DNA from: an uncultured virus (IMG/VR IMGVR_UViG_3300010885_025158)
Taxonomy: Duplodnaviria; Heunggongvirae; Uroviricota; Caudoviricetes
Strand: one strand, 5' to 3'
Length of the DNA stretch: 20,000 bases
Virus record (IMG/VR): IMGVR_UViG_3300010885_025158
Within the stretch, counting starts at the first letter, position 1, and every line of letters starts with the position of its first letter. Shown piece by piece: positions 18,561 through 20,000 of this stretch. Under the pieces are notes generated by a model, which was given only the letters and a program-made list of their open reading frames with translations, was not told where the DNA came from and did no database searches. The position numbers were made by a program, and so were the translations under genes.

Positions 18561-18652
18561 TGGCGGAAGACGGAGGAGTCGAACCCCATCCCTGTTAAGA
18601 GAACCTGGTTTTCAAGGCCAGTCGCAGGACCAACCCCGCTGCATCATCTTCC
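18561..18652 (-). tRNA. tRNA-Ser(TGA)
   Basis: GGAAGAT/GTCTTCC acceptor, loop CTTGAAA, long variable arm, GGTTCGACTCC T arm, GCCA end (G73 fits Ser). Confidence 0.92.
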
Positions 18653-18656
18653 AAGA

Positions 18657-18730
18657 CTAGTTATTTTTGTGTCAGGAAACTAGCAAACCCCGTGAGCGCA
18701 GCCCATCCTGTTTTCGCGTCAGCGGAGCCA
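18657..18730 (-). ncRNA. unidentified structured RNA candidate (two hairpins plus an H-type pseudoknot)
   Basis: GC-rich non-coding spacer. Pseudoknot pairings CGGGG/TCCTG and CTAGTT/AACTAG; hairpin TGGGC-TGC-GCTCA. Shares motif words with the tmRNA pseudoknot. Confidence 0.5.
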
Positions 18731-18734
18731 GAAG

Positions 18735-19331
18735 CTAAGAAGCATTTGTAGACAGGTCTGGCAATTTTTCTTTGCGTGATTCAATCAATTTGTTGATACG
18801 CTCAAGCACTTGTTCTGAAGTCATCCAAATGTCTTTGTTGTGCAACATAGCTTGGATTTCTTCGGTAGTTAAAAAATCTTTGTATACTTCGGTTAAGAAC
18901 TGTTCTGACCAAGCTCGTTCAAACTGAACTTGATCGTACATTTCTCCGCCTTTACCAAATACTCCAGCCGAATAGTTGTGAAACATAAATAAGCTGTGTG
19001 GAGTTATTTCGTAACTGTGTCCTGACAAAAAGATCATGGTTGCAGCACTCATACAAGCACCTTCTACACTAGTGGTGATGTGCGCAGCACTTTCACCCAT
19101 TACGCGTAAGAATTGAATTGCGCTATATAAGTCTCCGCCACAACTGTTGATATGAAACTTAATCTCATCGTACTGTCGTGCATTGCGGATAATATCAAAC
19201 CAGCTAGTATAATTTTCCGGCTCTAGTAGTTCTCCAGACAAATAAAACTCGTAAGAATTACTTGTGTTTTTGGTAAAAAACTCTGTTGACCCCAATTTAG
19301 GGTCAAGTAAATCATCTAGGCTATTTGTCAT
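18735..19331 (-). CDS. clpP: ClpP-like serine protease
   Basis: YLSGE, INSCGG, catalytic Ser in ACMSAAT, His in FMFHN, Asp in KDIWMT. Confidence 0.88.
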   Translation of the reverse strand: MTNSLDDLLDPKLGSTEFFTKNTSNSYEFYLSGELLEPENYTSWFDIIRNARQYDEIKFHINSCGGDLYSAIQFLRVMGESAAHITTSVEGACMSAATMIFLSGHSYEITPHSLFMFHNYSAGVFGKGGEMYDQVQFERAWSEQFLTEVYKDFLTTEEIQAMLHNKDIWMTSEQVLERINKLIESRKEKLPDLSTNAS

Positions 19332-19343
19332 GTTATTTTATAA

Positions 19344-19886
19344 TTAGAAGCTAAACCCTACTCCGAGACCATAAGCATTTTCTTGAATATCTTGATAGCT
19401 TTTGCTAGCATTTAAGTTTAATACAACGTTCTTAAGAACTGGGTAGCTATACGTACCAAATACAACTGATTGTTTAGTTTCAGTTGTAGCAGTTGTGCCT
19501 ACGCGAGTTTTTACACCAGCTAAAGCAAAACCAGGGCCAACCTTTAAACCAGCAGTTGCACCAACTAAGCCGTATTTATAGTCTGAGTTACGAGCACCAT
19601 TAAGCCCATTGTCAAGACCAACACCAACAAAAGGTGTAACGCCAAACATGGATTTACCAGCTGTAACTTCTAGGCTATGAATCATGCCACCAGTTTCAAA
19701 TGTGGCTGTACGGCCTTGTGCACCTAACTGAATGCCACTAACTTCTTTACCAGCACGAATATACTGAGCAGTACTGCGAGCACCAGAAGCCTGATCGTTA
19801 ACACTATCGATGTCAACGCTAAAATAATCAGCAGCAGATGCCGCACATGATAAAGCAACTAAAGTTGCAGTTAAGACTTTTTTCAT
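19344..19886 (-). CDS. outer-membrane beta-barrel (porin-like) protein with signal peptide
   Basis: Start MKKVLTATLVALSCAASA|AD with AAGGA SD; alternating amphipathic strands; C-terminal YGLGVGFSF BAM-type beta-signal ending in Phe. Confidence 0.8.
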   Translation of the reverse strand: MKKVLTATLVALSCAASAADYFSVDIDSVNDQASGARSTAQYIRAGKEVSGIQLGAQGRTATFETGGMIHSLEVTAGKSMFGVTPFVGVGLDNGLNGARNSDYKYGLVGATAGLKVGPGFALAGVKTRVGTTATTETKQSVVFGTYSYPVLKNVVLNLNASKSYQDIQENAYGLGVGFSF

Positions 19887-19902
19887 AAAATTCCTTGTTA
19901 AT

Positions 19903-20000
19903 GCCAACTTATTCTGTTACGAGGAAAGTTGGCGGAAACCCTAAGCAGTGTTTAGGCTGCTAATGCGAACTGTGAGTCGTTTGCGTTTACTTTTTGTTTA
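19903..20000 (-). ncRNA. ssrA: tmRNA, tag-coding region (5' part beyond the window; probably the coding piece of a permuted gene)
   Basis: Tag frame 19984-19952: GCA AAC GAC TCA CAG TTC GCA TTA GCA GCC TAA = ANDSQFALAA*. A-rich resume context AAAAAGTAAAC upstream, hairpin AGCAG/CTGCT over the stop codon, then a pseudoknot. Confidence 0.9.

Follow-up and report, generated by a model that had tools for sequence, protein, structure and literature searches.

The window, that is, the whole 20,000-nt stretch of phage DNA that was analysed, carries on its minus strand a permuted tmRNA, a ClpP-like protease gene and a tRNA-Ser(UGA)-like gene, and the element studied here sits at the junction of the last two, within a tRNA array, on the tRNA strand and with further tRNAs beyond the tRNA-Ser(UGA)-like gene. 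The main features of the locus are the following:

19903..19942, minus strand: terminal pseudoknot of the permuted tmRNA, used as comparison object (ARAGORN, Rfam beta_tmRNA)
18735..19331, minus strand: ClpP-like protease gene (Pfam PF00574, 40.5 bits against a cut-off of 20.2)
18654..18764, minus strand: whole RNA element, member of a new family (cmsearch 106.5 bits, E 3.2e-22, with model R1, a covariance model made from 39 phage copies, the window copy being among these 39 training sequences)
18561..18652, minus strand: tRNA-Ser(UGA)-like gene with an encoded CCA (Rfam tRNA-Sec model, 36.6 bits, threshold 47)

The permuted tmRNA is the sole one found by ARAGORN (genome positions 84049-84416), and its Rfam beta_tmRNA match is cut by the end of the window. 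ARAGORN missed the tRNA-Ser(UGA)-like gene at 18652, which starts 3 nt after the pseudoknot of the element and for which 96 distinct relatives were aligned. On the minus strand, the stretch between the tmRNA and tRNA-Val shows no consensus promoter or terminator. Metatranscriptome contigs cover the element in all four runs (these are contigs, which show coverage but not strand, level or ends, and DNA carry-over is possible), and in three of the four RNA runs a single contig, which may hold DNA, spans the element together with clpP and tRNA sequence.

An earlier, sequence-only reading had flagged a small RNA at 18657..18730. The conserved RNA runs instead from 18654 to 18764 (~110 nt), thus overlapping the clpP stop codon (18737-18735), and the flagged pseudoknot is only its 3′ domain; the strings then quoted are nonetheless present in the sequence. 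On the minus strand, this pseudoknot reads CGGGG (18692-18688)-TTT-GCTAGTT (18684-18678)-TCCTG (18677-18673)-ACACAAAAAT-AACTAGT (18662-18656). The first 30 nt of the element double as the final 10 codons of the ClpP-like gene, the sole frame that enters it. The R1 match of the window copy is full-length (model positions 1-101 of 101), and the window element is the only strong R1 copy in the 98.9-kb phage genome. Note that this genome has, over its two strands, 44 matches to a loose H-type pseudoknot pattern, and therefore shape alone is no proof; the evidence lies in the family, with a covariance-model E-value of 3e-22 and covariation across genomes, and it is on these grounds that the earlier idea of a stable non-coding RNA holds as far as conservation is concerned. 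Single-sequence folding of 18653-18740 gave a z-score of -0.41 and a fold that differs from the conserved one and is itself non-conserved.

Fold and covariation of the family

The fold of the window copy, part by part from the 5′ to the 3′ end of the RNA, is as follows:

18757..18762, minus strand: 5′ strand of helix Pa, GCCAGA, within the clpP frame (partner strand 18727-18732; both-sided changes at 4 of 6 pairs, 99 sequences)
18752..18756, minus strand: 5′ strand of pseudoknot helix b, CCUGU, which opens the Pa loop (partner strand ACAGG, 18707-18711)
18733..18751, minus strand: variable Pa loop, containing the clpP stop TAG; its length and sequence vary across the family
18727..18732, minus strand: 3′ strand of helix Pa, UCUGGC (covariation)
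18722..18726, minus strand: joint UCCGC, of which UCCG is nearly invariant (consensus uCcGc, 99 sequences)
18716..18721, minus strand: 5′ strand of helix Pe, UGACGC (partner strand 18693-18699, with a bulged C; both-sided changes at 5 of 6 pairs)
18712..18715, minus strand: GAAA of the invariant CGAAA (at least 97% identical, 99 sequences)
18707..18711, minus strand: 3′ strand of helix b, ACAGG, in the Pe loop (covariation)
18700..18706, minus strand: unpaired AUGGGCU, part of the invariant GAUGGGCUG (at least 97% identical, 99 sequences)
18693..18699, minus strand: 3′ strand of helix Pe, GCGCUCA (covariation)
18688..18692, minus strand: 5′ strand of S1 of the H-type pseudoknot, CGGGG (invariant)
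18685..18687, minus strand: loop L1, UUU, between the 5′ strands of S1 and S2
18678..18684, minus strand: 5′ strand of S2, GCUAGUU (all 7 S2 pairs change on both sides)
18673..18677, minus strand: 3′ strand of S1, UCCUG (S1 pairing)
18663..18672, minus strand: A-rich loop L3, ACACAAAAAU (GACAC invariant, remainder A-rich)
18656..18662, minus strand: 3′ strand of S2, AACUAGU (covariation)

The family fold thus has two hairpins, Pa and Pe, linked by pairing of the first five Pa loop bases with the Pe loop, followed by a compact H-type pseudoknot with a G-rich S1, a U-rich loop 1, a variable S2 and an A-rich loop 3. The strand order Pa5′-b5′-loop-Pa3′-Pe5′-b3′-Pe3′ is supported by covariation, and the Pa loop, which can be 8 nt, is not conserved. 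In the window copy all helix pairs are standard, and Pa, b, Pe, S2 and S1 can all form; the invariant joints UCCG, CGAAA, GAUGGGCUG, CGGGG and CCYGACAC are all present between 18726 and 18669. These joints make up ~35 unpaired or junction bases that are nearly invariant from phages to Acidobacteria, an invariance which for the pattern-fixed bases is partly by construction since the searches were pattern-based. The L3 pattern (GACAC followed by A-rich sequence) holds also in the sequences found without forcing that stretch. A ribosome finishing clpP reads through Pa and helix b to the stop in the Pa loop, and therefore the fold forms after translation or without it.

Compensatory change was frequent at both sampling depths. 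Among the 39 phage sequences, 96.3% of cells were paired versus 39–52% in slid controls, with 19 of 29 pairs changing on both sides, and among 99 distinct phage and bacterial sequences the paired fraction was 96.9% versus 36–50%, with a covariation score of 0.624 versus 0.06–0.11 and none of 500 shuffles as high. Four helices covary in the 99 sequences, one of them a loop-loop pseudoknot: helix b is 95.5% paired, 4 of its 5 pairs change on both sides, and it is among the top mutual-information pairs, which are exactly those of the covarying helices. The mutual-information scan gave no extra tertiary pairs beyond these four helices, and no covarying partner was found for the joint UCCGC in the 99 sequences. 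The sole variation in the S1 partner TCCYG turns a G-U into a G-C pair (GU 75, GC 22); as S1 and all joints are otherwise invariant, support for S1 comes from this one change and from analogy. UCCG might alternatively pair with CGGG, for which one sequence (L419) shows a matching double change.

These results revise the pairing proposed previously. Instead of two separate hairpins upstream of the pseudoknot, the covariation pairs TGACGC with GCGCTCA, and ACAGG with CCTGT inside clpP. Two stems that differ within one genome, formerly taken as covariation, do not constitute a test, and the search for homologues then suggested did find relatives in which S2 covaries (99 sequences).

Family spread and genomic contexts

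The family searches used patterns taken from the family itself, and the counts below under-sample its real spread and diversity. A first IMG/VR scan, with S1 and L3 fixed and S2 free, gave 61 loci, and in a second one, with L3 and the S1 3′ strand not fixed, 32 of the 80 loci still had UCCYGACAC and an A-rich loop. Among the bacterial loci, 72 of 80 fetched were members; the carriers are Alpha- and Betaproteobacteria, Verrucomicrobia and Terriglobia, and five plasmids carry the family as well. The pseudoknot, the same two upstream helices and the invariant joints are found in all 100 aligned members. There is one copy per genome in five of five carriers, and when 121 genomes were sampled within one bacterial family, three had the element, two of these being carriers already known. 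Queries of the INPHARED cultured phages with a 1.7-kb piece, the element and a bacterial variant returned tRNA matches only, or nothing. In 80 loci of ClpP relatives, the element lies behind clpP in only two (L002 and L003), and in most of them a tRNA-like gene directly follows clpP. The family moves with mobile DNA, namely phage tRNA arrays, small plasmids and islands; in bacteria it is sporadic, and it is an accessory rather than a housekeeping element.

The phage copies keep company with tRNAs: in 23 of 32 related phage loci there are tRNAs less than 1.5 kb away, every one on the element strand, and only 3 of 32 have a tmRNA within that distance. Eleven of the 32 copies lie 2–18 nt behind a tRNA and eight lie 0–16 nt before one, many sitting between two tRNAs; a terminator-like hairpin follows 10 of 32, and some have a Shine-Dalgarno sequence and an ATG within 10–20 nt downstream. 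In bacteria, a TANNNT (-10 box) ends 4–7 nt before Pa in 42 of 70 copies (at most 3 for any other offset), which would place the transcription start 1–3 nt before Pa, and three Caballeronia copies show a promoter, the element and then a terminator at ~33 nt. On plasmids pLM20P3 and pYEE7 the element is alone between convergent units, and in both, as in Methylobacterium, it lies just 3′ of a unit's last gene. A co-oriented gene follows 2–150 nt downstream in ~21 bacterial copies, and these genes are heterogeneous (BglII, C5 methylase in four cases, Mrr, HNH, Cas4-Cas1, ParA and DUF4160); at least six bacterial loci have a convergent gene downstream. Copies also adjoin defence, toxin-antitoxin and plasmid genes. 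Because the contexts differ so widely, the element is an autonomous module and not a clpP-specific cap.

The promoter-proximal position of these 42 bacterial copies, the ~21 co-oriented genes, the Shine-Dalgarno sequences behind some phage copies and a riboswitch-like degree of sequence conservation could all suggest a cis-acting leader of the downstream gene, be it a riboswitch aptamer, a translation or stability element, or a transcription antitermination signal. However, the downstream genes share no common pathway, are replaced by a convergent gene in the six or more loci mentioned, and give way elsewhere to tRNAs or terminators. In addition, no alternative pairing was seen that hides a ribosome-binding site or makes a terminator, and S2 ends 5–15 nt before the Shine-Dalgarno sequence where one exists, so that we hold a leader function to be quite unlikely. 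Processive antitermination in particular was put low because many phage copies immediately precede a terminator-like hairpin.

Comparison with the tmRNA pseudoknot

The terminal pseudoknot of the tmRNA (AGGG at 19942-19939 ... AAGTTGGC at 19910-19903, minus strand) is the standard one of Rfam beta_tmRNA (beta-type two-piece tmRNA) and the last structure of the coding piece, the ribosome-binding site of the next gene following at once. The element resembles tmRNA (RF01850, RF04321) in its H-type knot: in both, the first stem is GGG/CCU, loop 1 is U-rich, the second stem covaries freely, and loop 3 is A-rich and contains ACA. Both knots also stand at the 3′ end of their RNA and belong to the same phage transcript. 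Unlike the knot of the element, that of the tmRNA comes after a tag reading frame, in an RNA that also has a tRNA-like domain: no tag frame ending in ...ALAA precedes the element knot (ARAGORN gives a tag only for the upstream tmRNA), and no tmRNA or tRNA model match indicates a tRNA-like domain (T arm, acceptor stem, CCA) in 18654-18764. Loop 3 of the element consists of ACACA and A-rich bases, whereas that of tmRNA has its own invariant CGUAACAGAAUA in most of 35 phage tmRNAs (L021 and L078 depart from it). Moreover, the element has two further helices and invariant joints, and occurs in bacteria and plasmids away from tmRNA. R1 gave one weak match on tmRNA regions (L078, E 0.0064; 81 sources searched, 35 of them holding tmRNA). 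Judged by sequence, the likeness is one of architecture and a few bases, in which common ancestry is not demonstrable, and the two knots are not one family. The sequence-only reading had seen here a pseudoknot module shared with tmRNA, a view that gives way to the two upstream helices and joints of all 100 copies and to the failure of R1 to unite the knots.

A functionless relic of a duplicated tmRNA 3′ end, or a pseudoknot arisen by chance, might be suspected from the string GGGTTT...TTTCCT...ACA..AAT, common to the element and the tmRNA knot 1.2 kb upstream, and from the 44 loose patterns in the genome. This is extremely improbable, since phages and several bacterial phyla keep the element with compensatory changes, many carriers have it far from any tmRNA, and in bacteria it has its own promoter; indeed, cross-genome covariation and the bacterial members already refute it.

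The knot could also be a portable device that protects 3′ ends as in tmRNA, which would stop 3′ exonucleases after RNase P has cut before the tRNA, so that the clpP mRNA, or a small RNA, would gain in stability. In favour of such a cap, the element pseudoknot ends just before the tRNA-like gene, the tmRNA knot likewise ends its coding piece, no terminator lies in the window stretch, the elements of pLM20P3, pYEE7 and Methylobacterium stand just behind a unit's last gene, and 10 of 32 phage copies stand just before a terminator-like hairpin. By analogy, the loops of the knot would suit a stable triple helix, loop 1 being U-rich and adjoining U-A pairs and the A-rich loop 3 spanning a G-C stem; in known H-type pseudoknots, this loop pattern goes with a triple-helical, stable knot. 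However, the pseudoknot is never alone, and Pa, helix b, Pe and the joints, present in 100 of 100 copies, would be needless for a simple cap. In addition, 42 of 70 bacterial copies begin a transcript, and therefore have nothing upstream to protect, many phage copies stand between two tRNAs, and the tmRNA and element knots each keep their own invariant loop 3 and are not united by R1. Protection of 3′ ends as the main role is thus doubtful, and a cap for the clpP mRNA, as first suggested, is not general given the copies behind a -10 box or between tRNAs.

Proposed action and known systems

Altogether, the flagged stretch is probably the 3′ two-thirds of a ~110-nt RNA gene that belongs to a large, doubly pseudoknotted family, met in no catalogue searched, and forms an autonomous and perhaps trans-acting fold. 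In the window phage, the element would share a transcript with the tmRNA, the ClpP-like gene and the tRNA array; RNase P, cutting at the adjoining tRNA-like gene as previously envisaged, would leave a 3-nt tail behind the pseudoknot, and the 5′ end would come from a cut inside the end of the clpP message. As to its action, we consider plausible, at somewhat under even chances, an autonomous, tightly folded and nuclease-resistant RNA in which the joints would form one binding or catalytic core with a target conserved across phyla. This core would act independently of the neighbouring genes, and the 3′ pseudoknot would be part of the overall fold and also shield the 3′ end. More tentatively, the family is possibly a new small-RNA class on mobile elements, either a self-cleaving ribozyme or an 'orphan aptamer' without an expression platform. 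An orphan aptamer would act in trans by binding a conserved host component or small molecule, for example by soaking up a conflict-relevant signal or factor, and the place of the copies beside restriction, toxin-antitoxin, Cas and plasmid genes and in tRNA arrays may point to a role in host/mobile-element conflicts. RNAs so conserved, scattered and mobile proved in the past to be ribozymes, riboswitch aptamers or binders of core machinery.

If this is true, a ~100-nt RNA with ~35 near-invariant bases and two pseudoknots is common to phages, plasmids and bacteria and absent from Rfam 15, its hosts being freshwater phages, small plasmids and scattered Proteobacteria, Verrucomicrobia and Acidobacteria. 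At this length the RNA lends itself to biochemical work at once, and cultivable carriers exist, so that its function is directly testable; the family also exists outside phages, which gives independent genetic handles.

Rfam 15 gave no match (E up to 10, 5 or 1) on the window copy, 10 phage copies and 12 bacterial copies, and the check proposed earlier thus finds no described family at gathering or permissive thresholds. Topic searches of the literature gave no description of the element, although the phage csRNA catalogue (PMC10690425) may contain the family, and the sequence words of the invariant core led to no relevant paper. A superficial resemblance to preQ1-I aptamers had been pointed out: like preQ1-I (RF00522), the element has a small H-type pseudoknot with an A-rich 3′ loop. 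In preQ1-I, the ligand-contacting loop sits between S2 and S1, whereas the element has 0–1 nt there, a second stem of 6–8 bp and an extra 60-nt domain. There are no queuosine or preQ1 genes near the element, which is followed by tRNAs, terminators or unrelated genes, and preQ1-I identity was rejected in the absence of both an RF00522 match (window, phage or bacterial copies) and a queuosine context.

A new self-cleaving ribozyme on mobile elements, which in tRNA arrays would help to process the polycistronic transcript, for instance at the 3′ trailers of the tRNAs, would account for near-invariant bases around pseudoknotted junctions, for the scatter over phages, plasmids and islands without a fixed gene partner, and for the 11 of 32 phage copies that start 2–18 nt behind a tRNA 3′ end. 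Pa with b directly behind it also recalls the P1/P2 order of HDV-like ribozymes. However, the HDV-like order is a nested double pseudoknot, P1-P2-P3-P1′-P4-P2′, and this identity was rejected, as the strand order differs, no P3/L3 or P4 is conserved (the would-be P3/L3 loop is variable and can be 8 nt) and Rfam gave no HDV match. The hammerhead core comprises CUGANGA ... GAAA ... UH around three stems; CGAAA is present in the element but no CUGANGA stands beside Pe, the bases before the Pe partner G being GGGCU, and with no conserved UH after helix b and no Rfam match it is therefore not a hammerhead. No other Rfam ribozyme family matched either, and since bacterial transcription would start 1–3 nt before Pa, nothing would be left to cut off 5′. 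A ribozyme is thus unlikely, even if theta ribozymes offer a parallel: according to the excerpt of PMC10879173, they are HDV-like, tRNA-associated in gut phages and postulated to process tRNA 3′ trailers. As far as that excerpt goes, the element is like them a small pseudoknotted RNA adjoining phage tRNA genes, with the first two helices interleaved alike.

T4 species 1 and 2 (rnaC and rnaD) are small stable RNAs of unknown function encoded in the T4 tRNA cluster. Compared by description and not by sequence, the element is similarly a non-tRNA RNA gene in a phage tRNA array, on the tRNA strand and presumably freed by tRNA-processing enzymes, but its family is also found away from tRNA arrays, on plasmids and chromosomes, and there has a promoter of its own. 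The Rfam models of GOLLD, ROOL and manA gave no match on the element. As given in an extract of PMC12990946, GOLLD and ROOL are large, ornate, cage-forming RNAs of 550–830 nt, often found in bacterial or prophage tRNA arrays; within what that extract covers, the element shares with them a structured, pseudoknot-rich orphan RNA tied to tRNA arrays and phages, and differs in being only ~100–115 nt. The family thus adds to a growing set of unexplained folded RNAs among phage tRNA genes.

Structure and conservation of the element

On the minus strand, the gene upstream of the element is ClpP-like (Pfam PF00574, 40.5 bits) and its end, with the stop TAG (18737-18735), is followed by CTTCTGGCTCCGCTGACGCGAAAACAGGATGGGCTGCGCTCACGGGGTTTGCTAGTTTCCTGACACAAAAATAACTAGTCTT and then by GGAAGATG. 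The H-type pseudoknot that the sequence-only reading had placed between this stop and the tRNA can indeed form, both stems being present in the sequence. Note that the knot shape by itself is no proof against chance: loose patterns of this kind (S1 of 4-5 bp, S2 of at least 6 bp, A-rich loop 3) occur 21 and 23 times on the two strands of the virus genome (98,857 b in full, the window being its 64189-84188), and the single-sequence fold of the element is nothing special (z -0.41), so that the question was settled through relatives.

An exact 19-mer of the element was found in 4 IMG/VR loci and the pattern GGGTTT plus TCCTGACACAAAAAT, with a free gap between them, in 61. In the alignment of these 61 loci, conservation reaches some 60 nt beyond the upstream edge of the segment initially delimited, with several segments changing in a compensatory manner. 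Together with the window copy, the loci gave 40 distinct sequences, of which 39 were aligned (L226, cut by a contig end, was left out), and the covariance model R1 was built on this alignment with four helices plus S1. R1 scores the window copy, itself a training sequence, at 106.5 bits (E 3e-22), and its search of the virus genome returned no second strong copy. The features are as follows, Pa and Pe being hairpins, b the pairing between their loops, and S1 and S2 the stems of the 3′ knot.

18762-18757 with 18732-18727, minus strand: Pa, GCCAGA with TCTGGC (from covariation)
18756-18752 with 18711-18707, minus strand: b, CCTGT with ACAGG (from covariation)
18721-18716 with 18699-18693, minus strand: Pe, TGACGC with GCGCTCA (from covariation)
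18692-18688 with 18677-18673, minus strand: S1 of the H-type pseudoknot, CGGGG with TCCTG (from sequence)
18684-18678 with 18662-18656, minus strand: S2 of the H-type pseudoknot, GCTAGTT with AACTAGT (from sequence)
18652 to 18561, minus strand: tRNA-Ser(UGA)-like gene with encoded CCA, directly downstream of the element

In the 39-sequence alignment, 96.3% of the paired cells were complementary, versus 39-52% with partners slid by 1-3 columns; both sides changed in 19/29 pairs, and the observed covariation score was reached by none of 500 shuffles. Pooling 100 members (57 phage and 43 bacterial; 99 distinct) gave 96.9% versus 36-50% and a covariation score of 0.624 versus 0.06-0.11; aligning to the model biases this pooled result toward the structure, a bias from which the MAFFT-based 39-sequence result is free.

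Table. Helix support in the pooled alignment (99 sequences)
Helix; pairs with both-side changes; cells paired
Pa; 4/6; 97.5%
b (Pa loop with Pe loop, pseudoknot); 4/5; 95.5%
Pe; 5/6; 97.0%
S2; 7/7; 95.9%

A mutual-information scan of all column pairs placed the Pa, b, Pe and S2 helices on top and found no other convincing pairing. S1 (CGGGG/UCCYG) is constant except for a G-U to G-C change in 22/99 sequences, and its pairing is supported weakly and by analogy; the joint UCCG could conceivably pair with CGGG instead, an arrangement in which position 54 varies uncompensated but one sequence (L419) carries a matching G-to-A plus C-to-U double change. Neither of the hairpins drawn by the sequence-only reading, a short one in GGGCTGCGCTC and another formed by TCC(G)CTG/CAGGA, is conserved; other pairings covary instead. 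Among the 99 sequences, CGAAA, GAUGGGCUG, CGGGG and CC.GACAC are at least 97% identical, an invariance partly imposed by the search patterns except for CGAAA and UCCG, which are free of them. Altogether, the element family is a conserved, doubly pseudoknotted RNA to which the window copy fully belongs, and we regard what is said here of its identity as very probably correct.

Distribution of the family

To avoid circularity, a second IMG/VR scan (GATGGGCTG...GGGGTT) left loop 3 and the 3′ strand of S1 free. R1 members made up 32 of the 80 loci fetched, and in these (U/A)CCYGACAC, the A-rich run behind it and a complementary S2 are all retained. A stricter pattern, run against prokaryotes with each species represented by a single genome, matched 86 stretches; 80 were fetched, and 72 of these were R1 members at an E of 1e-3 or better. 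By record title, the carriers belong to Sphingomonadales, Acetobacteraceae, Azospirillaceae, Rhodobacterales and Hyphomicrobiales, as well as to Paraburkholderia, Caballeronia, Cupriavidus, Comamonadaceae, Verrucomicrobia and Terriglobia. The element is single-copy in all five carriers searched whole and, under strict filters, was found in 3 of 121 sampled genomes of one carrier's bacterial family, two of them known carriers. BLAST placed it on 5 PLSDB plasmids, including pLM20P3 and pYEE7 of Paracoccus yeei (7.2 kb and 9.6 kb; both confirmed by R1, 62-63 bits). The distribution is mobile and sporadic. As a separate observation, two family copies (L395 and L396) stand 2.6 kb apart in a single island of one Paraburkholderia contig, where a tRNA gene and a DUF6538-bearing integrase precede them.

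In Rfam 15, the window element had no match under the gathering thresholds, nor with E relaxed to 10, and there was none to the element in 10 diverse phage loci (E up to 5) or 12 bacterial loci (E up to 1); no paper describing the RNA came up in the literature, whether sought by sequence words or by topic. As far as Rfam 15 and these searches reach, the family is new; PMC10690425, an IMG/VR-based catalogue of candidate phage RNAs, could list it under a number.

Genomic contexts, transcription and possible role

In phages, tRNAs lie within 1.5 kb in 23/32 loci, always on the same strand as the element; a tRNA 3′ end, often of tRNA-Gly, lies 2-18 nt upstream in 11/32, a tRNA follows within 0-16 nt in 8/32, a tmRNA lies within 1.5 kb in 3/32, and a terminator-like hairpin within 160 nt downstream in 10/32. 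CUA-anticodon tRNAs (amber suppressors, labelled tRNA-Pyl by ARAGORN) were also seen near the element in L329, L280, L342, L286 and L297.

Among bacterial copies, a TANNNT hexamer ends 4-7 nt ahead of where Pa begins in 42/70 (other offsets, 3 at most), which would make the element the start of transcription. Promoter, element and a terminator at ~33 nt follow one another in three Caballeronia copies, and only 5/73 bacterial copies have a terminator by a crude test. Among the genes downstream in the same orientation are C5 methylase with NaeI (4 loci), BglII with MT-A70 methylase, Mrr, HNH, Cas4-Cas1, ParA-like, DUF4160 (2), DUF2442, DUF4258, Bro-N and DUF4143, and elsewhere ordinary genes (NadB-like, Na/H exchanger, MFS, nitroreductase), while several loci have convergent genes in their place. 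Other bacterial neighbours are Rep3 and RPA plasmid initiators, an integrase with DUF6538, PIN, ParE and BrnT. On pLM20P3 and pYEE7, the element has the mobilisation-side frames to one side and, to the other, a convergent toxin-antitoxin pair. The copy of a Methylobacterium plasmid stands behind an HTH/ImmA pair, and that of a Skermanella plasmid in a long gap behind repA. What these contexts share is mobile or accessory DNA. Other phage copies are followed by a Shine-Dalgarno and an ATG that opens a small frame resembling a membrane protein or lipoprotein. No single constant gene partner was found across the phage, bacterial and plasmid contexts surveyed. That the element is a cis leader is improbable. 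The family RNA has its own promoter in bacteria and does not depend on any fixed neighbour.

In the window, the 5′ strands of Pa and b lie inside the clpP frame, whose stop codon falls within the variable Pa loop. The frame may simply continue into the RNA gene, because a related contig (L219) has a near-identical Pa loop, but behind a tRNA rather than clpP. From the tmRNA to tRNA-Val, the minus strand outside reading frames holds no consensus promoter or terminator; the first perfect promoter is at 18244-18216. This sigma-70-type promoter (12/12; TTGACA, 17 nt, TATAAT) stands just downstream of tRNA-Val, and many similar hairpin-plus-promoter cassettes lie between genes of related phages.

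The element is covered by contigs in all four metatranscriptome runs, although contigs carry no ends, strand or level and could derive from DNA. In three runs, from relatives ~94% alike, a single contig (e.g., 18561-19338) joins the element to clpP and to the whole or a part of the tRNA-like gene, and the fourth holds a window-identical 151-nt contig (18601-18751). Among the differences listed for these relatives, none falls within 18653-18749 and many fall within clpP.

The tRNA-Ser(UGA)-like gene is matched in Rfam by the tRNA-Sec model only (36.6 bits, under the threshold of 47) and gets no ARAGORN call at 18652-18561. Its acceptor stem is 8 bp long (pair 8 is G-C in the window and, among relatives, A-U), its T stem has 4 bp, and both the D stem and the variable arm are long, a shape which we take to resemble the 8/4 ‘allo-tRNA’. 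The pattern occurs in at least 119 viral stretches (96 distinct copies aligned). Other small elements share the slot. In L027, L038, L040, L042 and L043, the place just upstream of such a gene is taken by an H-type pseudoknot with a hairpin behind it (the knot being GCGCA-rUA-AGUGUU-r-UGCGC-(13 nt, A-rich)-AACACU), in L040 between two tRNAs; the knot's S2 shows compensatory changes (AAUGUU/AACAUU), and R1 does not match it. A further spacer type, from a tRNA 3′ end to the tRNA-Ser-like gene (L096, L119, L122, L127, L145, L155, L161, L198 and others), has a ~14-bp long-range stem (AUAUAAAAACACAUU ... AGUGUGUUUCUAUAU) around a variable ~45-nt insert.

We suggest that the phage RNA would be cut out of a long transcript, with its 3′ end set by RNase P at 18652/18653, and would act as a self-contained unit whose invariant joints form one core. 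This reading as an autonomous, trans-acting core is tentative, at somewhat under even chances; that the RNA is a new ribozyme seems improbable. With its U-rich loop 1 beside U-A pairs and its A-rich loop 3 over G-C pairs, the 3′ knot probably contains U-A-U and A-minor triples and would then be a good block to 3′ exonucleases. A role as a 3′ cap is unlikely, if slightly less so than the ribozyme, and the remaining weight falls on other readings. Short, highly conserved and widespread, the RNA is open to experiment.

The tmRNA knot

The tmRNA that ARAGORN finds in the virus genome is permuted and in two pieces, its tag ends in ANDSQFALAA, and the end knot with which the element had been compared is present as its last structure.

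19942-19903, minus strand: tmRNA terminal pseudoknot, AGGG-TTTCC-GCCAACTT-TCCT-CGTAACAGAAT-AAGTTGGC

The survey covered 80 IMG/VR loci around ClpP relatives and the 4 exact-match (19-mer) loci, and held 35 permuted tmRNAs (ARAGORN), whose ends lie mostly just before clpP. Considering the window (19861-20000, minus strand), the genome beyond and L002-L081, a tmRNA of this kind (tag ...ANDSQFALAA) stands directly upstream of the ClpP-like gene in most of the 35 tmRNA-carrying loci, and the phage therefore couples a tagging RNA with a Clp-type protease subunit. The window differs by one additional gene between them, a 180-aa frame (19344-19886, minus strand) with a signal-peptide-like start (MKKVLTATLVALSCAASAA) ~17 nt behind the tmRNA pseudoknot and no Pfam match.

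Taken as a whole, what the sequence-only reading observed is partly confirmed and its interpretation partly supported: a noncoding RNA stands, but not a cap shared with the tmRNA. After the tag stop, most of the 35 phage tmRNAs read UAGGGUUU(yg)-S2-UUCCUCGUAACAGAAUA-S2' (L021 and L078 are exceptions to the common loop), with an S2 that is distinct yet complementary in nearly every lineage. The cut-off tmRNA end in the window matches beta_tmRNA in Rfam, and this arrangement is seen in the beta_tmRNA consensus too (GGGcU-stem-gCCUUGuuACcaAAg-stem). Because the relatives and this consensus share it, the tmRNA knot is an ordinary, already known component of the beta_tmRNA type.
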